Below, piece after piece: positions 6,742-42,778 of a stretch of DNA of 64,000 bases. Source of the stretch: Caldimonas sp. (GTDB lineage: Bacteria; Pseudomonadota; Gammaproteobacteria; Burkholderiales; Burkholderiaceae_C); the NCBI GenBank assembly GCA_035995885.1, contig DASYKC010000161.1, forward strand, positions 2,434 through 66,433. The letters are read 5' to 3'. The notes below the pieces were generated by a model. The model was not told the DNA's origin. It did not search any database and saw nothing but the letters and a program-made list of their open reading frames with translations. Position 1 is the first letter of the stretch. Each line of letters starts with the position of its first letter. The translations under genes and the position numbers were made by a program.

Positions 6742-7599
6742 TCACAGCACGCGCAGCATCTCGACGTGGGCGATTCCCGTCTCGTCGAACTCCGGACCGC
6801 GGCGGACGAAGCCGGCGCGCTCGTAGAACGGCGCGGCGCCGAGCTGCGCGTGCAGCACCGCCTCGCGATCGCCGCGCGCGCGCGCGGCGGCGAGCAGGGC
6901 ATCGAGCACGGCGCGGCCGACGCCGGCGTGGCGCGACGACGCCACGACCGCCATCCTGCCGATCTTGGCAACGCCGGGAACGTGCTCGAGCATCCGCCCC
7001 GTGCCGAGGGCGCGGCCGAGCCGGTTGAAGGCGACCGCATGGACGGCGTCGGCATCGGCGTCGTCCCATTCCATCTCGGCGGGAATCTTCTGCTCGCCGA
7101 TGAACACCTCGGCGCGGATCGGCCGGGCCGCGGCCTCGAGATCGCGCCACGCACCGACCCGCACCTCGACCATCGACGCCCCCTTCTCGAAGGTCTCGAA
7201 CAGCGCGCGCAGCTCGGCCGGAACGGGGATCGGCGCCTTCGCGACCGGGTCGGCGAAGACGTAGACGAGCTCGCCGGTGACGAGCAGCTCGTCGGTGCGG
7301 AAGATGCCGCCGAAGAAGGTCAGCGACGAGGTGCCGATGCGGGAGCAGCGCATGCCGACGTCGACCACGTCGTCGTACTGCGCCGAGCCGAGATATTCGA
7401 CGGTCGCCTTGCGCAGGAACATGTCGCCGCCGAACGACTGCATCGTCGCCGCGTACGGCATCGCCAGGGCGCGCCAGTAGCCGGAGATCGCCGTGTCGAA
7501 GTAGGTCAGGTAGTGGCCGTTGAAGACGATCTGCTGCGCGTCGATCTCGGCCCAGCGCACGCGCAGGCGCTCGAAGAAACGGAAGTCCGAACGTTGCAT
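6742..7599 (-). CDS. YbgC/FadM-type acyl-CoA thioesterase fused to GNAT (ElaA-like) acetyltransferase
   Basis: N-half RVRWAEIDAQQIVFNGHYLTYFD (hotdog thioesterase); C-half KIGRMAV..RHAGVG, LHAQ, FDETGIAHVEM (GNAT). Confidence 0.85.
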   Translation of the reverse strand: MQRSDFRFFERLRVRWAEIDAQQIVFNGHYLTYFDTAISGYWRALAMPYAATMQSFGGDMFLRKATVEYLGSAQYDDVVDVGMRCSRIGTSSLTFFGGIFRTDELLVTGELVYVFADPVAKAPIPVPAELRALFETFEKGASMVEVRVGAWRDLEAAARPIRAEVFIGEQKIPAEMEWDDADADAVHAVAFNRLGRALGTGRMLEHVPGVAKIGRMAVVASSRHAGVGRAVLDALLAAARARGDREAVLHAQLGAAPFYERAGFVRRGPEFDETGIAHVEMLRVL

Positions 7600-27434: not shown

Positions 27435-28100
27435 TCAGAACGTCAAGGTGCGCACGCCCTCGGCCGTGCCGAGCAGACAGACGGTCGCCGGCCGGCGCGC
27501 GAAGATGCCGACGCAGACGACGCCCGGCCACTGGTTGACCTCGCTCTCGAGCGCCACGGGGTCGTCGATCGCGAGGCCGTGGACGTCGAGGATGATGCCG
27601 CCGTTGTCGGTGACGACGCCCTCGCGACGATGCGCGCGCGCGCCGAGCGCCGCGAACCGGCGCGTCACCTGCGCCGCCGCCATCGGAATCACCTCGACCG
27701 GCAGCGGGAAGCGGCCGAGCCGGGCGACGAGCTTGGAGCCGTCGGCGATGCAGACGAAGCGCTCGGCCAGGTCGGCGACGATCTTCTCGCGCGTCAGGGC
27801 GGCGCCGCCGCCCTTGATCATGCAGCCCGACGCGTCGATCTCGTCGGCGCCGTCGACGCAGACCGGCAGCGACTCGACGTCGGCCGCCTCGACGACCGCG
27901 ATGCCGCGCTCGACCAGGCGTGCCGTGCTCGCCGCGCTGCTCGACACCGCGCCGGCGATGCGGCTGTCGCCTTCGAGCCGCGCCAGCGCATCGATGAAGA
28001 GATTGACCGTCGATCCCGAGCCGACGCCGATGACGGCGCCCTTCGGCACGTAGGCGAGCGCGGCCTCGGCGACCCGGCGCTTGAGCTCGTCCTGCGTCAT
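27435..28100 (-). CDS. rpiA: Ribose-5-phosphate isomerase A
   Basis: [39 protein letters not shown]. Confidence 0.96.
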
Positions 28101-29494
28101 CGCGGCAGCTTGCCGACCATCTGCTCGGGGACGACCCAGGCATCGAACTGCTCGGGCGTGACCCAGCCCGAGGCGAGCGCCGCTTCGCGCAAGGTGCTAC
28201 CGCCTTGATGCGCCGCCTTCGCGATCTTGGCCGCCTTGTCGTAGCCGATGTGCGGATTGAGCGCCGTCACGAGCATCAGCGAGCGCTGCACGAGCTCATC
28301 GATTCGCGCGCGGTCAGGCTCGATGCCGCGCGCGCAGAACTCCTCGAAGCTGCGCGCGCCGTCGGCGAGGAGGCGAACGCTCTGCAGGAAGTTGTGGACG
28401 ATCACCGGCTTGAAGACGTTGAGCTCGAAGTTGCCCGACGCGCCGCCGATGTTGATGGCGACGTCGTTGCCGAAGACCTGCGCCGCGATCATCGTCAGCG
28501 CCTCGGCCTGGGTCGGGTTGACCTTGCCCGGCATGATCGAGCTGCCCGGCTCGTTCTCGGGAATGCGGATCTCGCCGAGGCCCGAGCGCGGCCCCGAGGC
28601 GAGCCAGCGAACGTCGTTGGCGATCTTGTTGAGCGAGGCCGCCAGCGTCTTCAGGGCGCCGTGGGCGAAGACGATCGCGTCGTGCGCGGCCAGCGCCTCG
28701 AACTTGTTCGCTGCCGAGACGAACGGCAGCGCGAGGCGCGCCGCCAGCTCGGCGGCGACACGCGCGCCGAACTCGGGCGGCGCGTTCAGGCCGGTGCCGA
28801 CGGCGGTGCCGCCGAGGGCGAGCTCAGAGAGGTGCGGCAGCGCTTCGCGAACGTGCGCGATGCCGTGATCGAGCTGGGCGACCCAGCCCGAGATCTCCTG
28901 GCCGAGCGTCAGCGGCGTCGCGTCCTGGAGGTGGGTGCGGCCGATCTTGACGATCGCCGCGAACGCTTCGGCCTTCTTCGCGAGCGTGTCGCGCAAGGCC
29001 GCGACCGCGGGCAGCAGCCGCGTCGCGATCGCGACGACGGCGGCGACGCTCATCGCCGTCGGGAAGACGTCGTTCGACGACTGGCTGCGGTTGACGTCGT
29101 CGTTGGGATGGACGAGGCGGCCTTCGCCGACCGGCCCGCCGAGCAGCTGCGAAGCGCGGTTGGCGAGCACCTCGTTCATGTTCATGTTGGTCTGCGTTCC
29201 CGAGCCGGTCTGCCAGATCGAGAGCGGAAACTCGTCGCCGTGCGCGCCGGCGAGGACCTCGTCGGCGGCGGCAATGATCGCCGCGGCCTTCTCGGCCGGC
29301 AAGGTGCCGAGGTCCCGGTTGACGACGGCGGCGCTGCGCTTGACGCCGGCGAGCGCGCCGATCAGCTCGGCCGGCATCTTCTCGGTCGAGATGGCGAAGT
29401 GATGGAGCGACCGTTCGGTCTGCGCGCCCCACAGGCGGTCGGCGTCGACGGCGATGTCGCCGAAGGTGTCTTTCTCGATGCGCTGCTCGGCCAT
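28097..29494 (-). CDS. fumC: Class II fumarate hydratase
   Basis: [41 protein letters not shown] signature. Confidence 0.96.
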
Positions 29495-29545
29495 GGCGGG
29501 TCCTGCCGCGAAGTATGCACGGCGATGCCAGAATCGGCGCCCGTC

Positions 29546-30583
29546 ATGGCGCTCATTCCCTTCCCGCTGGCCCGACCTTTTCTGTTCGGGCTCGATCCGG
29601 AACACGCCCATGACGTGACGCTGGCCGCGCTGGCGGCGATCCAGCGCACGCCGCTCATCGCGCTGGTCGAGCAGGTTCGGATCAGCGATCCGGTGACGAT
29701 CGCCGGGCTCAGCTTCCCGAACCGGATCGGCCTGGCCGCGGGCCTCGACAAGAACGGCCGCTGCATCGACGCCTTCGGCGCGATGGGCTTCGGCTTCGTC
29801 GAGGTCGGCACCGTCACGCCGCTGGCGCAGCCGGGCAATCCCAAGCCGCGCGTCTTCCGCCTGCCCGAGGCCGGGGCGCTGATCAACCGGCTCGGCTTCA
29901 ACAACGACGGCCTCGCCGCGTTCGTCGCCAACGTCAGGCAGGCGCGCTTTCGCGCCCGCGGCGGCATCCTCGGCCTCAACATCGGCAAGAACGCGGCGAC
30001 GCCGATCGAACGCGCCGCGGACGACTACCTCATCGGCCTCGCCGGCGTCTATCCGCATGCCGACTACGTGACGGTCAACGTCTCGAGCCCGAACACGCAG
30101 AACCTGCGCACGCTGCAATCCGACGCCGCCCTCGACGCCTTGCTCGCGACGCTGAGCGCGCGCCGCGCCGAGCTCGCCGACGAACACGGCAGGAAGGTGC
30201 CGATGTTCCTCAAGATCGCGCCCGACCTCGACGACGCGCAGGTCGAGGCGATCGCCGCGATCGTCTCGCGCCACCCGTTCGACGGCCTGATCGCGACCAA
30301 CACGACGCTCGCCCGCGACGGCGTCGCCGGCCTCGCCCACGGCAACGAAAGCGGCGGCCTGTCGGGAGCGCCGCTTGCTGCCCGGTCGAACCAGGTCATC
30401 GCCGGTCTGCGCGCCGCCCTCGGCCCGCGTTATCCCCTCATCGGCGTCGGCGGCGTGATGTCCGGCGCCGATGCGCGCGCGAAGCGCGAGGCCGGCGCCG
30501 ATCTGGTCCAGATCTACACCGGCTTCATCTACAAAGGGCCGGCACTGGTGACGGAGTCGGCGCGCGCGCTCGCGGGCGCATGA
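29546..30583 (+). CDS. pyrD: Quinone-dependent dihydroorotate dehydrogenase
   Basis: [45 protein letters not shown]. Confidence 0.96.
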
Positions 30584-30629
30584 ACGATTGCCGGCACACT
30601 CGTGCCACCAGGACTGCGGAGACAACGGT

Positions 30630-32045
30630 TTGAATCGATCCTCGACATCGGCGTGCGTGCGGCGGCTGTGCGCCCTCGCCCTGCTCGCCCTCGCCGGCTG
30701 CAGCTCGCTTCCCGTCATCACCCCCGACCTCGCCCGCGCCGATCCGGCGGGCGTCCAGTTCCAGGCCGCCAACGGCCGCATCCTCTCGCCCGAGCGCAGC
30801 AAGGAATTGCTCGCCAAGCTCGGCGGCGCCGAGAGCAGCGACGTGCTGGCGCGCCACCTCGCGCTCGAGCAGGCCGTCGCCGACGGCCCGCTCGTCCTCG
30901 GCAACCGCGTCGTCATCCTCGAGAACGGCCCGAATACCTACGCCGCGATGTTCAGCGCCATCGACGCAGCGCGCGACAGCATCGACATGGAGACCTACAT
31001 CCTCGAGGACGACGAGGTCGGCAAGCGGCTCGCCGACGCGCTCATCGCCAAGCAGGCGCAGGGCGTCCAGGTCAACCTGATCCACGACGGCGTCGGCACG
31101 CTCGGCACGAAGAAGGACTATTTCAAGCGCCTGAGCGACGCCGGCATCAACGTCCTGACGTTCAACCCCGTCAATCCGCTCGCCGCCAAGGCCGGCTGGA
31201 CCGTCAACAACCGCGACCATCGCAAGCTCCTCATCATCGACGGCCGCTCCGCGGTGCTCGGCGGCATCAACATCAGCAGCGTCTATTCGAGCAGCCTGCA
31301 GGGCAGCTCGGGCGGCAGCGTGAGCGGTGGCTCGGCGGGCAACGACAAGAAGACCTTGCCCTGGCGCGATACCGATCTCCTCATCGAAGGCCCGGTCGTC
31401 GCGAGGCTGCAGAAGCTCTTCATGGAAACCTGGACCGGCCAGAAGGGCGCGGCGCTCGCGCAGCGCGACTACTTTCCGACCCTGCAGGCGCAAGGCCCCG
31501 AGGTCGTTCGCGCGATCGGCAGCACGCCCGACGAGCCGTTCAGCCAGATCTACGTGACGCTGATCTCGGCGATCAACAGCGCCGAGAGCGAGATCCTCCT
31601 CACCAACGCCTACTTCGTTCCCGACCCGCAGCTGATGCGCTCGTTGATCGCTGCCGTCGCGCGCGGCGTCGACGTCAAGCTGATCGTGCCGAGCACGACC
31701 GATTCTTCGCTCGTCTTCCACGCCGGCCGCTCGCACTACGAGCCGCTCCTGCGCGGCGGCGTCAAGCTCTACGAGCGGCGCGAGGCGCTGCTGCACGCCA
31801 AGACCGCGCTCATCGACGGCGTCTGGGCGACGGTCGGCTCGACCAACCTCGACTGGCGCAGCTTCCTACACAACCAGGAGCTGACCGCCGTCATCCTCGG
31901 CGCCGACTTCGGCGCGAAGATGCGCGCAGCCTTCGAGCGCGACCTGGCCGTGTCGGACCCCATCACCCTCGAGGCGTGGCAGCGTCGCCCGCTCTCGACG
32001 CGGGCCAAGGAAATGTTCGCTCGACTCTGGGAGTACTGGTTGTGA
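30630..32045 (+). CDS. cls: Cardiolipin synthase/phospholipase D family, predicted lipoprotein (TTG start uncertain)
   Basis: Two HKD motifs ([16 protein letters not shown]); [10 protein letters not shown]; lipobox LAGC. Confidence 0.85.
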
Positions 32046-33600: not shown

Positions 33601-34392
33601 TCAGGCTCCCGTCTTTTCTGCCGCCTTGGCGATCGCGTCGACTGCTTCCCGTTCCGCTGCGGCGGCCGACGTCCCCGGCGCGACGTCGACCGTGGCCGCC
33701 GCGCGCAGGGTGCGCTTCTCGATCCGCTTCTCGGGGTGGGCGTTGAGGACGATGCGGTGCACGTAGATGCCGGGCAGGTGGACGGCGTCGGGGTCGATCG
33801 CACCGGTCTCGACGATCTCCTCGACCTCGACGATCGTCACCTTGCCGGCCATCGCCACCGCCGGATTGAAGTTGCGCGCGGTGCGGCGAAAGACGAGGTT
33901 GCCGGACTTGTCGGCCTTCTGCGCCTTCACCAGCGACACCTCGGGCAGCAAGGCGCGCTCCATGATGTAGGTGTGGCCGTCGAACTCGCGCGACTCCTTG
34001 CCCTCGGCGACGAGCGTGCCGACGCCGGTGCGGGTGAAGAACGCCGGGATGCCGGCGCCGCCGGCGCGGAGCTTCTCGGCGAGCGTTCCCTGCGGCGTGA
34101 ACTCGAGCTCGAGCTCGCCGGCGAGGTACTGGCGCTCGAACTCCTTGTTCTCGCCGACGTAGCTCGAGATCATCCGCTTGATCTGGCGCGTCTCGAGCAG
34201 CTTGCCGAGGCCAAAGCCGTCGACGCCAGCGTTGTTCGAGATGACCGTGAGGTTCTTGACGCGCGAGTCGCGCAGCGCCTCGATCAGCGCCTCGGGAATG
34301 CCGCAGAGGCCGAAGCCGCCGACCGCCATCAGCTGGCCGTCGTGGACGACGCCGGCCAGGGCGGCAGCAGCGCTCGGGAAGATCTTGTTCAT
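33601..34392 (-). CDS. scoA: 3-oxoacid CoA-transferase subunit A
   Basis: [38 protein letters not shown]. Confidence 0.93.
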
Positions 34393-34468
34393 CGCCGATC
34401 CCTTGAGTCGAATCGACGCGATTATCAGCGCCCGCGCGCTGCCTAGAATGCCCGCAGGGAGAACGACG

Positions 34469-34882
34469 ATGACGATGGACGCAGCCGCCCTGCAGGCGAC
34501 GCTCGACACGCTGGCGGCCGACTACGTGAAACGGCTGGGGCTGCGCGTCGAGTCGATCGAGCCGGGCCAGGTGACGATGAGCCTGCCGGTCTCGGCCGAG
34601 ATCGTCCACGCCGGCGGCGTCGTCTGCGGCCAGGCGATCATGGCTGCGGCGGACACCGCCATGCTGGTGGCAATGATCGCCCAGCTCGGTGAGTTCCGGC
34701 CGATGACGACGGTGCAGCTGCAGACGAGCTTTGTGAGGCCGGTGCCGAAGGATGCGCTTCGGATCAACGTCGTGGCGCGAGTGTTGCGCGCAGGGAAGAG
34801 TCTGTCGTATGGCGACGTCGAGTTCAAGACGGCCGATGGCAAGCTGGCGGCGCACGCGACGACGACGTACGCGTTGCTGTGA
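34469..34882 (+). CDS. PaaI-family thioesterase
   Basis: [18 protein letters not shown]; [12 protein letters not shown]; RAGKSL. Confidence 0.88.
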
Positions 34883-34956
34883 GCGAGCACCCGCCGCGGA
34901 ATGAGTAACGCCGGTCGCGCGCCTTGGCGTACCTTCCACCAAAACCACAGGCATTA

Positions 34957-34985
34957 TTGACACCGGACCTGGGAACGCGTACGTT
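34957..34985 (+). promoter_or_regulatory. Sigma70 promoter of the acyltransferase gene
   Basis: TTGACA (34957-34962), 17-nt spacer, TACGTT (34980-34985); GGGAGG RBS before ATG 35033. Confidence 0.6.
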
Positions 34986-35032
34986 CACTTTACGACCTGC
35001 GCACGCTGGGAACGTGCAAATCGGGAGGACGG

Positions 35033-35719
35033 ATGCGCACGGAGTTATTGAGCTTCACGCTGAGACGAGCTGATACCCATCGGGATCTTCTACGCGCGTG
35101 CGAAGTTCGAGCCGCGGCATACGGCTACAAGGTTCCGGCGTATCGAGAGTCGATGGCTCAGCCGGACGCGATTGACGCCAGCCCGTGGACTACTGTATTT
35201 CTGTGCGAGGACAAGCTTTCCGGCGAGGCGGTGGGGACGATGCGCGTTCAGACCCGCGAGCACGACCGGGGCGAGCTCGAGATGGAACGCTACGTCAAGC
35301 TACCAGAGTATCTGGAAAACGCTACGTGCACCGAAGTCACGCGCTTGGCGGCGCCGGTCGGATCCGATCCATTCGTGCGACTTGCCCTGTGGAAGGCCGC
35401 CTATTTGTTCGCTGCAAGCCAAGGAATAAGTTGGATCGTCATGAGCGTTCGCAAGCCTGCCCTCATCCGTGCGTACGAGCGGATGGGATCCAAGGACGTT
35501 TTCGCGAATCGGGCCGACGGATTCTTTCTGCCTTACGTAGGCAACATGCCGCACCGGATCTATGCGCTAGACATCGACAACTTCTACGGTTTTTGGAGCG
35601 ACAGCAAGCATCCGCTGCTCGAGTTCATGACGGCCACGAATCATGAAGACATCATCGTCGGTCGCCCGTCAGTGGACCGCCTGTCCATAAGAGGAGTCGG
35701 GCTCCGAGTCGTCGAGTGA
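35033..35719 (+). CDS. LuxI/FeeM-fold N-acyl transferase (putative N-acyl amino acid or acyl-signal synthase)
   Basis: EVRAAAYGY, DAID..TTVFL..GEAVGTMRV, TEVTRLA, AYLFAASQGI..IV...LIRAYERMG follow the motif order of acyl-ACP-dependent GNAT-fold synthases. Confidence 0.65.
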   Translation: MRTELLSFTLRRADTHRDLLRACEVRAAAYGYKVPAYRESMAQPDAIDASPWTTVFLCEDKLSGEAVGTMRVQTREHDRGELEMERYVKLPEYLENATCTEVTRLAAPVGSDPFVRLALWKAAYLFAASQGISWIVMSVRKPALIRAYERMGSKDVFANRADGFFLPYVGNMPHRIYALDIDNFYGFWSDSKHPLLEFMTATNHEDIIVGRPSVDRLSIRGVGLRVVE

Positions 35720-37660
35720 TTTGGCGTACTCGTAGAGGGGATGGTTTCGATTGCAAACCCCGTCCGCCGCGTACAAGGCAATCGTCTGCAGTAGCTGCTC
35801 CAAGGTAAACGGTTTCATCAACAGGCCGTCCATGCCCGCCTCGTAGCACTCTCGCCTGTCCTCGTCACTGGGGCTCGCGGTGAGCGCAACGATTGGGACG
35901 CTGGGCAACCCAATCCTCGTTTCGATCGCACGGATCTCGCGAGATGCCGTCGGCCCGTCCATTACCGGCATTCGACAATCCATGAAGACGAAATCCGGTC
36001 GTGGCTTGGCAAACGCAGCGGAGATCGCCTCCTTGCCATTGTTGGCGCGAACCACTTCGGCACCTATGTTCGCAAGGTTCGCCGTCGCGATCAACGCATT
36101 GACCTCGTTATCCTCAACCAAAAGGACTCGGTATCCCTCTCGAACGTGGGGTAGCTTCGGCTGCGGTTGAGCCGACTGATCCGACGTCGCGGGCGCTTCG
36201 GGAAGAATGGCGGTGAACGTGAACTGCGAACCGACGCCCACCGCGCTGCTGACGCCGACGTCGCCTCCCATCGCCTGGGCGATCTCGCGGGCGATGGTCA
36301 GGCCCAGGCCCGTTCCGTCTGCCGGTCGAGTCGCCGAGTCGTCCGCCTGTCGAAAGGCATCGAAAATGTGCGCGGCATCTTTCGTCGCGATGCCCGGACC
36401 GGTGTCTCTGATCTCAAAGGAAAACAGCTTCCCTTGACGCTGGACCTTCAGCACGACCAAGCCCGACTTGGTGAATTTCACCGCATTGCCGAGCAGGTTG
36501 TGGAGAACCTGGCGAACCCGCGCTGGGTCTCCAATCACCCGGCACGGGGTGTCGATTCGGATCGAACTGCTGAAGTCGAGACCTTTGCTGTCGCACCTCA
36601 GCTTGTACAGATCCGCAACATTGGCAAGCTCAAGCGCCAGATCAAAAGTTGCGTGACGCAGTTCCAAGCGACCAGACTCAATTCTCGAGATATCGAGTAA
36701 CGACCCTATGAGTTCTAGCAAATGCGTTCCGGAAGATTCCAGAAGTGCCAGACGATGCTGCACGACGGGATCAGCGGCGGTCTGCTTGCGAATTAGCTGG
36801 GTCAGGCCCAGGATCCCATGCAAAGGTGTACGGAGCTCATGACTCATGGTGCCGAGAAACAAGGACTTGACAGCCCCCTGACGTTTCACCTCGAGCAACG
36901 CCGCAGCGAGAGCTTCGGCATTGCGCGTTTCGCGCAGACGCGCCTCCTCCGTCGCCTCGTGCGCCAGGAACTCGCTTCTTAGACGACGTTCAGACGCGTA
37001 GGCGGTCACGATCGACTGCAGCAAGACCAGGATCGTGCCCAGCGAAACGAAGACTCCCAGTGCGTCGCCCCGAAGCGCCACTGCGACGGCAAGTGGAACC
37101 AGCATCGAGGTCACGTAGGCTACGGACGCGGCTGCCATGGTGTTGAACCCGTGCGTGGCCATCAATGCAACACTGCAGAGCACGGCACAAGTCAGGCATG
37201 CGAACTCACTTGGACCAAATGCGCACCATGCGCCTGCCGCACCCCAAATGGCGCCATCTAAAGCTAGTAGCACCAACGTCAGTTGACGAGAGAAACCATC
37301 CCTGACCATTGGCCAACTCGAGCGCGAGTACGCCAAGGCTGCCAAGACTCGAACGACCGAGATTGCGAGCTTCACGCCCAGCCAGACGTGCGTCGGGGTC
37401 CAGCCGAATGTCGGGGTCAGGAATGGAACGAGCAGTGCGGCAAGCACCGAGTTGATAACCGCCGCTCTGATGACGTGTTTTTGCACACCATCGAGTTGCA
37501 ATCTTTGAAATCGACTCTTCACCTCTCCGGTCAGAGCGTTTGAAGTGGGTTTCGACGGCGTTCCAATGCGCCGCAAAACAGACGGCAACACAGATGACAC
37601 ACCCAAATCAATCACTTGACAGTTCTGCTCGTTGATGCCGACTTGCGGTTCAGCCGTCAA
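35669..37660 (-). CDS. Membrane-bound hybrid histidine kinase (HisKA-HATPase-REC); start uncertain
   Basis: About 5-6 TM segments; H-box MSHELRTP, N-box NLLGNAVKFT, G1 DTGPGI, G2 GTGLGL; REC FMDCRMPVMDG. Confidence 0.92.
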   Translation of the reverse strand: MTAEPQVGINEQNCQVIDLGVSSVLPSVLRRIGTPSKPTSNALTGEVKSRFQRLQLDGVQKHVIRAAVINSVLAALLVPFLTPTFGWTPTHVWLGVKLAISVVRVLAALAYSRSSWPMVRDGFSRQLTLVLLALDGAIWGAAGAWCAFGPSEFACLTCAVLCSVALMATHGFNTMAAASVAYVTSMLVPLAVAVALRGDALGVFVSLGTILVLLQSIVTAYASERRLRSEFLAHEATEEARLRETRNAEALAAALLEVKRQGAVKSLFLGTMSHELRTPLHGILGLTQLIRKQTAADPVVQHRLALLESSGTHLLELIGSLLDISRIESGRLELRHATFDLALELANVADLYKLRCDSKGLDFSSSIRIDTPCRVIGDPARVRQVLHNLLGNAVKFTKSGLVVLKVQRQGKLFSFEIRDTGPGIATKDAAHIFDAFRQADDSATRPADGTGLGLTIAREIAQAMGGDVGVSSAVGVGSQFTFTAILPEAPATSDQSAQPQPKLPHVREGYRVLLVEDNEVNALIATANLANIGAEVVRANNGKEAISAAFAKPRPDFVFMDCRMPVMDGPTASREIRAIETRIGLPSVPIVALTASPSDEDRRECYEAGMDGLLMKPFTLEQLLQTIALYAADGVCNRNHPLYEYAKSLDDSEPDSSYGQAVH

Positions 37661-38110
37661 CTTGGCGTAACGGCGCAGGCCTTAAGCAATGACCGCGGCT
37701 CCCTCCGAGGCACTGTGTCGCCATCACATCGGCGCTTTCGAGGAGGCGCGAACGTGATTTTCTGCACGATTCAACCGCAGCTGCTCCTCTTGGCGCCACT
37801 GTTGCCGAGGCGAGCCAAATTCGCGTTGTTGATCATCAAAGGGTTGCATATGTCCTCCACGACGCGACGGGCCATGGCTAGTGAGTCACTATCGGCAGTT
37901 GCGCGCCAACTTTTAGTCCGTTTCGCGGCGCTGGACCTACAAGTGACATCGAAGCCTTCTACGGCTTGATTGGCACCACTTTGGACGACCCTGGGCTCGG
38001 CCTTTCCACGGCCGTTCTCCGCAGCGAGTTGTCCCCGCGCGCGGAGGTGCCTCGCGCTACCGTCTCGTGTCGTTCAAGAATGCCGCCGGTACGCACGACG
38101 CGACGCCGCC

Positions 38111-38998
38111 CTACCCGTCGCCGAGCACCGGTTCCCCTGCGGGCGCGCGGGAGCGACCGCGAATCCACATGCCGAAGGAAAGGCCGAACAGCACCATCGT
38201 GATCGAATAGACGGCCGCGGGCAGGGCGAATTGAGTGTCGCCCAACGTCGTCATCGCCACGTACATCGACAAGACTGCGCTTCTTATGCCGAGTTGGAAG
38301 GTGATGGCGATGCCGTTACCTCGGCCAAGCCCCCAGAGCTGGGAAAATCCGTAGCCCAAGCCGAGGCTCAGCAAGTTGAACAAGACGACGCTACCGCCAA
38401 CCTCGGTGAAACCACGAATCAGGGACTGCCACTCCTTGACGATGGCTCCTGCCGAAAAAAGGACAAGGACCAGAACGCTGAAGATTCGCATTGGCTTGTC
38501 GGCTCTTGTCGCAAAAGCGGGAAATCGCGCCCGCACCGCCATACCGAGGATGACTGGAATCACCAAGCTCGCCATCGTTTCCACGAGCTTTCCCGTGATC
38601 GACGGCATCGCTGTATCGCGGCTCGCGAAGTAGCTCAGCGACCAGCTGCAGATAAGAGGAAGCGTGAAGAGGCTGAGAGCAGTGTTGACTCCGGTGAGCG
38701 TGACATTGAGCGCGACGTTTCCACCAAAGACGTGGCTATACAAGTTTGACGAGATGCTTCCGGGCGCCGCAGCCAAGAGCATGAGTCCAACCGCATAAGG
38801 GGTCGGCAACCGCAATGCAACCGCAATGAGCAGTGCCACCAGAGGCAATATCACCATCTGCAGGGTGAGGGCGATCAACACCGCGCGTCGCTCGCCGAAT
38901 GCCCGACGGAAGTCCGCCAATTCAAGCGATAGCCCGAGACCGGCCATCACCACCGCGAGGGCGACGAACAGGAGCTGCACAGTGGCCTGAGTTGACAT
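38111..38998 (-). CDS. Bile acid:sodium symporter (BASS/SBF) family transporter
   Basis: MAGLGLSL, LTLQMVILP, APGSISSNLYS..FGGNVAL; ~9 hydrophobic segments. Confidence 0.87.
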   Translation of the reverse strand: MSTQATVQLLFVALAVVMAGLGLSLELADFRRAFGERRAVLIALTLQMVILPLVALLIAVALRLPTPYAVGLMLLAAAPGSISSNLYSHVFGGNVALNVTLTGVNTALSLFTLPLICSWSLSYFASRDTAMPSITGKLVETMASLVIPVILGMAVRARFPAFATRADKPMRIFSVLVLVLFSAGAIVKEWQSLIRGFTEVGGSVVLFNLLSLGLGYGFSQLWGLGRGNGIAITFQLGIRSAVLSMYVAMTTLGDTQFALPAAVYSITMVLFGLSFGMWIRGRSRAPAGEPVLGDG

Positions 38999-39299
38999 TG
39001 ACAAGAGCGCAGACGATCGCCGTGATTGCAACGCTCCGACTTCTAACCTGCTCAATCGCGTAGCGGCTCAATTCTGTGTGCACGACCGTCAAATAATCAC
39101 GCAAGACGCGGCTTGTCGAAGATGAAGCCTTGTGCGGTAGTTCAGCGTCCAGCAAGCGGGAGCGTCAAACGCAGACGATGCCTCGGACAGTCCCTCGCCC
39201 GGTTTTCGCCCACTACAACGCCGCCCAGGCGAGACGTAGACTAGGAATCGAGAGCGATCCAGCCGATACGACAGGTCGGCCTCGACCCGGAAGCCAAGG

Positions 39300-41228
39300 A
39301 TGAACATGCCATCGCGTCAGCAGGCCAATCGTCCCAATCGATATCGGTTCACGGACGAGGAGTTCCTCGAGATCTATCGCAGGCCAGGTGCCCGCTACCT
39401 CGGCATCGCTTGCCTGTTCGGCGCCCTCGGAGCGCTTTCGTTCTATCTGATCGACGCCATCGGCATCGGACACCCGCTGATCGGCGGTATCCAAAGCATG
39501 CGCCTTGCGCTGGCCGGCGCCCTTTCCTCCCTTGCAACCTTCATTTGGTTTTCGCCGCGGCAGATCGCCAAGCACTACGCACCCATATTCGGCGGCTTCA
39601 CCAGCCTCGCCGTCGCGATCAGCGCGTATATCTCGTACCAAGGGCACTTGAAGGACCCACCGCTCGAGCTCCTCTACTCAGTGGACATGACCCTCGTCCT
39701 TTGCATCATCGTCATCTTCGGTTTCAGTCGACTTACGTCATTTTCCACGACGGTTCTGACGAGCAGTGTCGCTGTTGCAATGATTGGCTTTCTCTGGCTG
39801 CTCGAGGGCACAGATGCACGTCAACTCATGCGGATGACGACCCATCTCTCGATCATCACGGCCTGCTGCTTTTCGCTTCATCTCAGCATTCAGCGGCGCG
39901 AGTGGGAATTGTTTCTGCTTGCCAAGGAGAATCTGCGCCGAAACAAATACGCCGCCGAGCTCGAGCGCGCCAAGAGCGCGGCCGAGGACGCCGACGCTGC
40001 CAAGTCCCGGTTTCTCGCGAACATGAGTTACGAGATTCGAACACCGATGAATGGAGTCTTGCAAATACTCGACGTCGTAGGCGATCACGCAAAGGACGAC
40101 GATCGGCTACTCATAGAACAGGGCCGCAAGTCGGGTCATGCCCTGCTGCGAATCCTGAACAGCATCCTCGACTATTCCAAGCTGTCGCATGGAGCCGCGG
40201 GCGTCGAGATCTCCGCCGTCGACATCGCGGACGTCTGCCGCACCGTGCTGGATCTTCATGTCGCCGCGGCGACGACGAAGGGGATCGACCTGCGCTCGCA
40301 GTTGGACTTGCCTCCGGGCGGCGCGTCGCGGGTGCTTACCGATGAAGTCAAGCTGTTCGAGATCATCAACAACCTGCTGTCGAACGCCCTGAAGTTCACT
40401 CAGGTCGGATATGTCGATCTCAACGTCCAGCTCCTCCTTCCCGTTCCGGACAAGTTCCCGCACGCTGCCCTGGAGATCCGCGTTCGCGATTCCGGGCCGG
40501 GAATATCGACACTCGACCAGGCAAGGGTCTTCTTGCCCTTCTTCCAACGTGATGCCGCGCGCAACCCCCGTCACGGTGGCACCGGCTTGGGTCTGGCCAT
40601 CGTCAAGGAACTCGCGGAGAAGTTGCATGGTCGGGTTCGGGTGGAGAGCGAAGAAGGGCTCGGAAGCTTCTTCGAAGTTCGACTTCCGGTCACCCTGTCC
40701 GAGACCTCGAGTCACGCTGACGCGCGGTCCACGAGTCATCTGCCGGAAGCGGAGAGGGGGTTGACGAGGAGCTCGGAGGTCACGCAGAGCGAGTTCAGCG
40801 GTCGCTCCCTGCTGATCGTCGATGACAACGAGCTCAATGCCATGCTCGCATCGCGCCTGATGCAGGCAATGGGCTTTGAGGTCCAGCTCGCCGAGAACGG
40901 CGCTGTCGCCCTCGAGCTCTTCGCGAAGAAGCGCTTCGATCTCGTTCTGATGGACTGTCAGATGCCGGTGCTCGACGGGTACGAGGCGACCAAGCGAATT
41001 CGCGAGCTGGAAGCAAGGACCTCGACGCTGCGTACCCCAGTTATCGCCATCACTGCGTACACGCTGTCCGGCGACCGGGAGAAATGCCTCGCCTCCGGCA
41101 TGGACGACTATCTCGCCAAGCCCTATTCGGTTCAGGACCTTCGCCCGAAGCTCGACCGCTGGCTTGGACGGACTGTGTCTCCAACGGGACCGATCCGCAA
41201 CCCGGCAATCAGCAAACAAGCACTTTGA
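39300..41228 (+). CDS. Membrane-bound hybrid histidine kinase-like protein with Tyr replacing the H-box His
   Basis: About 6 TM segments; FLANMSYEIRTP, NLLSNALKFT, DSGPGI, GTGLGL; REC LMDCQMPVLDG. Confidence 0.9.
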   Translation: MNMPSRQQANRPNRYRFTDEEFLEIYRRPGARYLGIACLFGALGALSFYLIDAIGIGHPLIGGIQSMRLALAGALSSLATFIWFSPRQIAKHYAPIFGGFTSLAVAISAYISYQGHLKDPPLELLYSVDMTLVLCIIVIFGFSRLTSFSTTVLTSSVAVAMIGFLWLLEGTDARQLMRMTTHLSIITACCFSLHLSIQRREWELFLLAKENLRRNKYAAELERAKSAAEDADAAKSRFLANMSYEIRTPMNGVLQILDVVGDHAKDDDRLLIEQGRKSGHALLRILNSILDYSKLSHGAAGVEISAVDIADVCRTVLDLHVAAATTKGIDLRSQLDLPPGGASRVLTDEVKLFEIINNLLSNALKFTQVGYVDLNVQLLLPVPDKFPHAALEIRVRDSGPGISTLDQARVFLPFFQRDAARNPRHGGTGLGLAIVKELAEKLHGRVRVESEEGLGSFFEVRLPVTLSETSSHADARSTSHLPEAERGLTRSSEVTQSEFSGRSLLIVDDNELNAMLASRLMQAMGFEVQLAENGAVALELFAKKRFDLVLMDCQMPVLDGYEATKRIRELEARTSTLRTPVIAITAYTLSGDREKCLASGMDDYLAKPYSVQDLRPKLDRWLGRTVSPTGPIRNPAISKQAL

Positions 41229-41238
41229 GTGGCGACGC

Positions 41239-41898
41239 TCAGCGCTTGATATCCAGCTCGCCGTAGAGCCGCTCGACCAGGGCACGCAGGCGTTCGAGCT
41301 CGGTCTCCGCCATCGCCACCCTCGCCTTCAGCGTCGCCAGCTCGCTCACCGGCACGATCGTCTCGTCGTCGCTCGCCGCCGTGAACACGCTCAGGTCGAC
41401 TGGGCCGCCGAGGAGATGGGCCCAGCGCTGCTCGCGGGCGCCCGGGGCGCGCGGCAGCTTGAGCGCGAGCGGACCGCCCTTCTCTTGCGCGCGCGCCGCC
41501 AGCTCGTCGAGGAAGCCCTCGACCGCCGAGACGTCGGCGAAGCGATGCAGACGGTCGCTCGCCGCGCGCAGCTCCGACGCGGTCTGCGGGCCGCGCAGCA
41601 TCAGCGTCGCCAGCAAGGCGACCGACTGCGACGGCAAGCCCAGCACGCGGCCCAGGTTGTGCTCGTAGCGGGCGACGCGCGAGCCGCTCGACTCGAACGC
41701 GAGCGACAGCGACTTCAGGGCGTCGACCGCGCCCTGCACCTCGGCCTCGCTCGCCGCAAGCACCGGGTCGCGCGCCGTCTTCTGGTTGCAGCCGAGCGTG
41801 AGCGTGTTCAGCGACAGCGGATAGCTGTCGGGCACGGTCAGCGACTTCTCGACGAGCACGCCGAGCGCGCGCAATTCGAGCAACGACAGCGGCCGCAT
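41239..41898 (-). CDS. YceH/DUF480-family protein (alternative GTG at 41901)
   Basis: RALGVLVEK...PDSYPLSLN...CNQKTARDPV; LMLRGPQT; REQRWAHL. Confidence 0.85.
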   Translation of the reverse strand: MRPLSLLELRALGVLVEKSLTVPDSYPLSLNTLTLGCNQKTARDPVLAASEAEVQGAVDALKSLSLAFESSGSRVARYEHNLGRVLGLPSQSVALLATLMLRGPQTASELRAASDRLHRFADVSAVEGFLDELAARAQEKGGPLALKLPRAPGAREQRWAHLLGGPVDLSVFTAASDDETIVPVSELATLKARVAMAETELERLRALVERLYGELDIKR

Positions 41899-41996
41899 CA
41901 CGGCAAAGGGTCGCTCGCCCGGACGCCGCGCCGCGCCGAAACCGGCCGCGTCACCTCGCCGGGCAACGAACGCAGTGAGGCGCGGTCGAGCGCCAC
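41898..41996 (-). other. Intergenic 32-aa mini-ORF / repeat-like element (copy B)
   Basis: GTG overlaps the SDR TAG, and its TGA overlaps the yceH start; encodes VALDRASLRSLPGEVTRPVSARRGVRASDPLP. Confidence 0.5.
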
Positions 41997-42778
41997 TACA
42001 GCGCGAAGCCGTCGTCGGCCTGGATCACGGCGCCGTTGATGAAGTGGCTCTCGTTGGCGCAGAGCATCATCAGCACGACGTCGAGGTCGGCCGGGCTGCC
42101 GACGCGCCGGCGCGGCAGCATGTCGATCAGCTTCTTGCCCTGCTCGGTCGACCATTGCAGGTGGTTCATCTCGGTGTCGATGTAGCCCGGGCAGATCGCG
42201 TTGACGTTGATGCCGAAGCGGCCCCACTCGAGCGCCATGGCCCTGGTCATGTGGACGACCGCGGCCTTGCTCATGCAGTAGACGCCGATCTTCGGCATGA
42301 CCTTGAGGCCGGCCATCGAGGCGATGTTGACGATGCGGCCGCCGGTGAAGGTGCCCGGCGCCGCGCCCTTGGCGCGCGCGATCATCCGCTTGCCGACCTC
42401 CTGGGCGACGAAGAACGCGCCGCGCGTGTTGACGTCGAAGACGTAGTCGTAGTCGTCGGGGTCGACGTCCACGAGCGGCTGCGTCGTCGCCACGCCCGAG
42501 TTATTGACCAGGATGTCGATCGTCCCCATCTCCGTCTCGGTGTGGGCGACGGCCGAGCGGATGCTGTCGTGGTCGGTGACGTCGAGCGCAACGACATGCG
42601 CATCGCCGCCTTCGGCCTCGATCTCGGCGCGCAGGCTCTTCAGCCGCTCGACGCGCCGGCCCGCGAGCGCGACGCCGGCGCCGGCCTTGGCGAGAACGCG
42701 CGCGAACTGCGCGCCGAGACCGCCCGAGGCGCCGGTGACGAGGGCGACGCGGCCCGAGAGATCGATCTGATAGCTCAT
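41996..42778 (-). CDS. Short-chain dehydrogenase/reductase
   Basis: TGASGGLG, NNSG, NIAS, YCMSK, PGYIDT. Confidence 0.92.
   Translation of the reverse strand: MSYQIDLSGRVALVTGASGGLGAQFARVLAKAGAGVALAGRRVERLKSLRAEIEAEGGDAHVVALDVTDHDSIRSAVAHTETEMGTIDILVNNSGVATTQPLVDVDPDDYDYVFDVNTRGAFFVAQEVGKRMIARAKGAAPGTFTGGRIVNIASMAGLKVMPKIGVYCMSKAAVVHMTRAMALEWGRFGINVNAICPGYIDTEMNHLQWSTEQGKKLIDMLPRRRVGSPADLDVVLMMLCANESHFINGAVIQADDGFAL

Follow-up and report, generated by a model that had tools for sequence, protein, structure and literature searches.

In non-hybrid HisKA kinases, the Thr at position H+4 is part of the phosphatase mechanism that acts on separate regulators. A hybrid arrangement is found in the Vibrio cholerae receptor CqsS, in which a multi-pass membrane sensor is directly joined to DHp-CA-REC without an Hpt domain (PMC3310172). 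A laboratory mutant of this receptor, H194Q, in which Gln replaces the phospho-acceptor His and everything else is intact, was reported to lack autophosphorylation and to keep the dephosphorylation of LuxU~P, for which Asp618 is needed (PMC3310172). A Tyr at the corresponding position, Tyr550, is carried by Caulobacter DivL inside a recognisable H-box, with the N, G1, F and G2 boxes kept; alphaproteobacterial homologues share this Tyr, and ATP binding by DivL is poor (PMC4211667). The gene described here, HK-B, has a Tyr at its phospho-acceptor position as well, which is probably a recent C-to-T variant, private to the haplotype of the metagenome-assembled genome (MAG), real, and segregating.

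The window, i.e., the whole stretch of 64,000 nucleotides that was analysed, carries HK-B and its parts as follows:

39300..41228, + strand: HK-B, a hybrid sensor histidine kinase of 642 aa (ORF and translation, Pfam, hydropathy, homologues)
39999..40193, + strand: HisKA (DHp) domain, residues 234-298 (PF00512, E 5.9e-11)
40029-40031, + strand: codon 244, TAC (Tyr), at the phospho-acceptor position (window sequence)
40341..40694, + strand: HATPase_c domain, residues 348-465, with the N, G1, F and G2 boxes at consensus (PF02518, E 3.6e-25, column counts)
40812..41150, + strand: receiver domain (Response_reg), residues 505-617 (PF00072, E 1e-26)
40953-40955, + strand: receiver phospho-acceptor Asp552 (invariant, 74/74 homologues)

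All three domains score above their curated cut-offs (PF00512, 42.7 bits against 26.9; PF02518, 89 against 26.4; PF00072, 93.7 against 30.2). A hydropathy scan placed a multi-pass membrane domain of about six helices at the N-terminus (about residues 30-200), giving the domain order membrane domain, HisKA, HATPase_c and REC, with no Hpt domain, which is the layout of CqsS. HK-B is also similar to membrane receptors of the LuxN/CqsS class in its general architecture, and its linkage to a FeeM-fold enzyme gene may be a further resemblance. It is not an orthologue of CqsS, LuxN or LuxQ, as its NCBIfam scores are far under the cut-offs (LuxQ_Vibrio, 266 bits vs. 1200; LuxN_Vibrio, 112 bits vs. 1550).

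The H-box of HK-B reads FLANMSYEIRTP (residues 238-249), and positions 40023-40043 of the window read ATGAGTTACGAGATTCGAACA, translated M S Y E I R T. The gene is thus a member of the HisKA-type hybrid kinase family whose allele in the window lacks the catalytic residue, i.e., the phospho-acceptor His expected of such kinases. Across the whole assembly (4.57 Mb, 245 contigs), 25 H-box-like frames matched a strict pattern, 24 of which contain His and one, HK-B, contains Tyr; because of this distribution, the anomaly is regarded as real in the window sequence and not as a genome-wide trait.

HK-B lies at one end of a low-GC island (GC 0.57-0.62 vs. 0.67-0.72 in the flanks), which is bordered by a 4HBT thioesterase gene and by DUF480/yceH and includes the following:

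34900..41230, no strand: low-GC island with the FeeM-like gene, HK-A, a 71-aa ORF, SBF and HK-B (composition profile, orthologous loci)
35033..35719, + strand: GNAT-fold, FeeM-like protein of 228 aa (sequence match to L026, AF2 model, Foldseek)
35669..37660, - strand: HK-A, the neighbouring hybrid kinase of 663 aa, H-box MSHELRTP (same three domains as HK-B)
38111..38980, - strand: SBF/BASS-family transporter gene between the two kinases (PF01758, E 1.2e-28; gene call on the contig L021, described below)

HK-A has an intact His, as stated in the earlier note, which was made from the letters of the window. The two kinases share 33% identity, in the catalytic core only, and no similarity was found between their N-terminal sensor domains. 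The 228-aa protein gave no Pfam or NCBIfam match by sequence. With the FeeM-flagged gene of the orthologous locus L026 it shares 31% identity (E 6e-28), and an AlphaFold (AF2) model of it (pLDDT 81.6, pTM 0.80) has as its best PDB matches in Foldseek the FeeM chains of 2g0b (E 2e-8, TM 0.74), followed by generic GNAT enzymes. FeeM is an N-acyl amino acid synthase, which makes the 228-aa protein a candidate for producing an acyl signal. A FeeM-fold acyltransferase gene is found in the same island as HK-B both here and in orthologous loci, and candidate stand-alone Hpt genes are present elsewhere in the genome. The 3' end of the FeeM-like gene overlaps that of HK-A by about 50 nt on opposite strands.

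At the same site, related genomes carry 4HBT, a kinase (-), a FeeM-like gene (+), HK-B (+) and DUF480 (comparison loci L025, L026, L029-L035 and L040). The minus-strand kinase of these relatives resembles HK-B over its full length (36-38% identity), whereas the HK-A of the window resembles it in the catalytic core alone. In the window, the FeeM-like gene is on the other side of this different kinase, and the SBF transporter and the 71-aa ORF are extra. Identity to the relatives is 27-62% for the island genes vs. 65-92% for the flanking genes. Judging from these comparisons, the locus is a variable one, of which the island of the window is a rearranged and divergent form, and the segment between 4HBT and DUF480 looks like a site where a signal-and-receptor cassette has diversified or been replaced.

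A search of a 5.8-billion-protein collection returned more than 100 clear matches to HK-B at 40-62% identity. Residue columns were counted in an alignment of 76 full-length sequences, of which 74 were counted after the window's own cluster was left out. In the column of residue 244, His was found in 74/74 homologues and Tyr in 0/74, confirming that the TAC codon, which the earlier note had read as Tyr in place of the phospho-acceptor His, does occupy that position. The columns of F238, L239, A240, M242, S243, E245, T248 and P249 are invariant in the alignment. The E-x-x-T motif, reported in the note as retained, is accordingly there in HK-B (E245 and T248). The ATP boxes match the consensus at N358/N362 (N), D397xGxG401 (G1), F411/F414 (F) and G427TGLG431 (G2), as do D509, D552 (LMDCQMP) and K607 of the receiver, and these residues are the same as those in 70-74 of the 74 homologues, in agreement with the note, which had described the ATP boxes and the REC Asp as intact. 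Every HK-B locus taken from 40 related genomes encodes His, and none of the genus relatives encodes Tyr. On this evidence, the ancestral and usual state of residue 244 is His. The alignment of orthologues that the note had called for was thus run, and Tyr is not conserved; His in all close orthologues, which that note had set down as speaking against a dedicated role for Tyr, is the pattern found.

P0003, which a Logan assembly of run SRR11678605 encodes, is the best match in the collection and is identical to HK-B at 639 of 640 residues, the sole difference being His in place of Tyr244. The Logan contig SRR11678605_764167 (L021, 7891 nt) corresponds to window positions 34307-42197 and has C at 40029, with the other 7890 bases identical. 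The protein cluster of HK-B has three members, i.e., the MAG protein, P0003, and a fragment of 393 aa found in two JGI metagenomes, and the JGI contigs that bear this fragment start at window positions 40030 and 40031, right after the variable base. The matching upstream JGI contigs were reached through the CoA-transferase gene that lies upstream of the island. One of these, Ga0372939_0001124 (L038, 19.7 kb, sample 3300035673), reaches window position 40156 and has CAC as codon 244; its end coincides with the start of the downstream contig of the same sample in a 127-nt overlap (40030-40156), the left edge of which is one base past the SNP at 40029. In sample 3300041409, the upstream contig ends at 39887, which equals 40028 minus 141, and the downstream contig starts at 40031. 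Contig ends with this geometry would be expected from a branch at one base in a de Bruijn graph whose largest k is 127 or 141. From the contig-end geometry together with this behaviour of de Bruijn assemblers, we infer that more than one base is present at 40029 among the reads of both JGI samples, and the breaks at 40029 in these two assemblies suggest that both alleles coexist there. T at 40029 was seen directly in one assembly only, that of the MAG.

Other look-ups added no further contigs. Those with the SBF, HK-A and 4HBT genes returned the Logan contig alone, as different start codons were chosen in the JGI gene calls. No near-identical fragment was obtained by exact look-up of ten guessed N-terminal fragments or by searching for homologues of the N-terminal 250 aa, and metagenome pattern scans across the SNP and just upstream of it gave no match, the near-identical records being perhaps outside the scanned set. 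The sample and run identifiers were not found in the literature searched. The MAG contains the island once only, with no strain-variant contig of it, and no paralogue anywhere in the assembly has a Tyr H-box from which a mis-join could have arisen.

Over about 43 kb, the MAG differs from the other contigs by 0 indels and 6 substitutions (about 1.3e-4), located at 6890, 20259, 30010, 30019, 40029 and 41907. Because there are no indels and so few substitutions over this length, the MAG consensus is judged to be clean, and the differences look like ordinary strain-level SNPs. Three haplotypes were distinguished over 40029/41907, namely T/A in the MAG, C/A in the Logan contig and C/T in JGI, a pattern in keeping with a recent, derived origin of T40029. 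The A shared by the MAG and the Logan contig at 41907, which is T in JGI sample 3300035673, falls within a mini-ORF (41898-41996) and is synonymous there. SNPs 30010 and 30019 are 9 nt apart, and the JGI contigs differ from the MAG at both; if the ORF at 28097-30916 (-) is a real gene, they are non-synonymous (F303L and R300G).

The history of HK-B in related genomes bears on what such a variant may mean. An orthologue was found in 2 of the 24 other genomes of the genus (G020 and G024). In each of these genomes the copy is damaged, and the six genes around it are intact. In G020 (L029, G020:C340, 7317-9135), a frameshift near residue 170 leaves the N-terminal part in another frame than the rest. 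In G024 (L030, G024:C38, 7670-9075), residues of about 121-233 are deleted, the frame shifts after the H-box, and two TGA stops are present. These two sister-species orthologues appear from their sequences to be pseudogenes. No HK-B or relic of it was found at the contiguous locus of G015, G006, G023 or G008, where the other kinase and the FeeM-like gene are kept, and intact copies with His are present in other lineages (L025, L040). Since HK-B is frameshifted in G020, internally deleted in G024 and absent from four more genomes, it looks dispensable in the genus. The locus L026 was set aside for the question of pseudogenes because all of its genes contain frameshifts. This 238-kb contig (ERZ25039547 contig_107855) has ETF-QO in three frames and DUF480 in two, and it is evidently an indel-rich assembly whose apparent pseudogenes are not trustworthy, given that the frameshifts hit several unrelated genes.

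The preferred reading is that HK-B is an ordinary, catalytically complete hybrid kinase in which one C-to-T transition at 40029 (CAC to TAC) would have exchanged His for Tyr, with the Tyr allele probably segregating beside the His allele in the natural population. The change is taken to be recent because the 7.9 kb shared with the Logan contig contains no other differing base, and private because it is absent from every orthologue and from two other same-strain assemblies. The main competitor to a real variant is that the T at 40029 arose in the MAG as an artefact, through a consensus, polishing, graph-path or systematic sequencing error, and that the organism has His. T does occur in one assembly only, with C in two other assemblies of the same strain, and errors most commonly take the form of a single transition; moreover, in a very large scan some random errors will strike a His codon and be picked for that very effect. 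However, the MAG shows 0 indels and about 1.3e-4 substitutions against three other assemblies, all other H-boxes in the genome are unaffected, and a mis-join is left without a candidate source, as there is no paralogue with a Tyr H-box. Most directly, the two JGI assemblies branch exactly at 40029, which a random error in a separate data set would not cause. We therefore consider an artefact unlikely, though not negligible. The earlier note had held a recent mutation and a sequencing error to be equally possible; the evidence supports this pair of explanations but does not weigh them equally, as a real mutation is favoured over an error.

The readings that give Tyr244 a function of its own fare less well. 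HK-B could be an evolved pseudokinase of the DivL kind, in which Tyr serves a phosphorylation-independent sensor or scaffold that works with the neighbouring His-intact kinase, and the note had put forward a dedicated pseudokinase or phosphatase of this style. The shared Tyr and the intact remainder of the H-box and ATP boxes agree with this (PMC4211667). However, the Tyr of DivL is conserved across homologues (PMC4211667), whereas that of HK-B occurs in 0/74 homologues, in no relative within the genus and in one haplotype of one strain, His being present in every orthologue and close relative and CAC in two contigs of the same strain. No accompanying change was found anywhere in the HK-B gene. 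The architectures differ as well, DivL having PAS domains and no receiver, and HK-B having a membrane sensor and a REC domain with no PAS domain by Pfam; in addition, DivL binds ATP poorly, whereas the ATP-binding boxes of HK-B, as predicted from sequence, are at consensus. This reading is highly improbable and was dropped, since it fails on both conservation and architecture. Even less credible, to the point of being almost negligible, is that Tyr244 is itself phosphorylated, making HK-B a tyrosine-autokinase variant that signals via phosphotyrosine. The precedent for this is general only and lies in the early description of DivL, which, in the older literature, was reportedly first described as autophosphorylating on Tyr. 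To our knowledge, transfer from phosphotyrosine to Asp is not a recognised phosphorelay step, and the Tyr allele is not conserved. Later work, moreover, found no autokinase activity of DivL (PMC4211667). HK-B Tyr244 is thus not a new pseudokinase family but the kind of thing that is already known.

What the Tyr allele would do can be approached through laboratory mutants of related receptors. By analogy with CqsS H194Q (PMC3310172), in which one substitution likewise affects the phospho-acceptor His and leaves everything else intact, the Tyr244 protein would be unable to autophosphorylate and hence would not feed a phosphorelay, while Asp552 could continue to accept phosphate from an Hpt protein and then release it, giving a kinase-off, drain-only state in which dephosphorylation of the Hpt protein is kept via the receiver Asp. 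Unlike H194Q, which is a laboratory substitution to Gln, that of HK-B is natural and gives Tyr. The note's suggestion of a receiver or sink role is therefore reasonable, on this analogy, for the Tyr allele, but it is the receiver Asp that would carry the drain, instead of the H+4 Thr that the note had invoked, as judged from CqsS H194Q (PMC3310172).

Since sister species carry broken copies of the gene or lack it, the Tyr allele is best seen as a possible early stage on the way to losing an accessory sensor that is dispensable. HK-B is like natural loss-of-function alleles of such sensors in that its lesion is a single recent point mutation of a catalytic residue, and like accessory-sensor pseudogenes in that sister species carry independent frameshift and deletion alleles or lack the gene. 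Unlike typical loss alleles, the lesion removes the kinase step only and leaves a full-length protein, which may retain a residual drain or sink function. Alternatively, selection could have favoured the Tyr allele as a separation-of-function allele that switches the kinase off and keeps the receiver drain, in a receptor that senses the acyl signal of the FeeM-like enzyme; it would then be maintained beside the His allele in the wild population as a signal-blind or permanently "signal-on" social variant, and the sister-species frameshifts and deletions would be later stages of a recurrent selection against the kinase activity of the receptor. We give this a low probability, and one SNP is unable to separate neutral decay from a selected change.

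If both alleles do coexist, HK-B would offer a small, clean natural case in which a phospho-acceptor knockout segregates within an uncultured population, the sensor gene concerned being one already lost from sister species. Such a case would be useful for a population-genomic study of sensor loss and would add no new mechanism. The case also advises caution: where a catalytic residue is missing in a lone MAG, orthologues and same-strain assemblies should be checked before the term pseudoenzyme is applied.

Among the database entries of the HK-B group, at least seven (P0081, P0083, P0085, P0086, P0090, P0094 and P0096) are products of 375-390 aa that start at M242 (MSHEVRTP) or M250 (MNGVLQ), i.e., at or just after the H-box. 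They include at least one call truncated by a frameshift (G020) and one at a contig edge.
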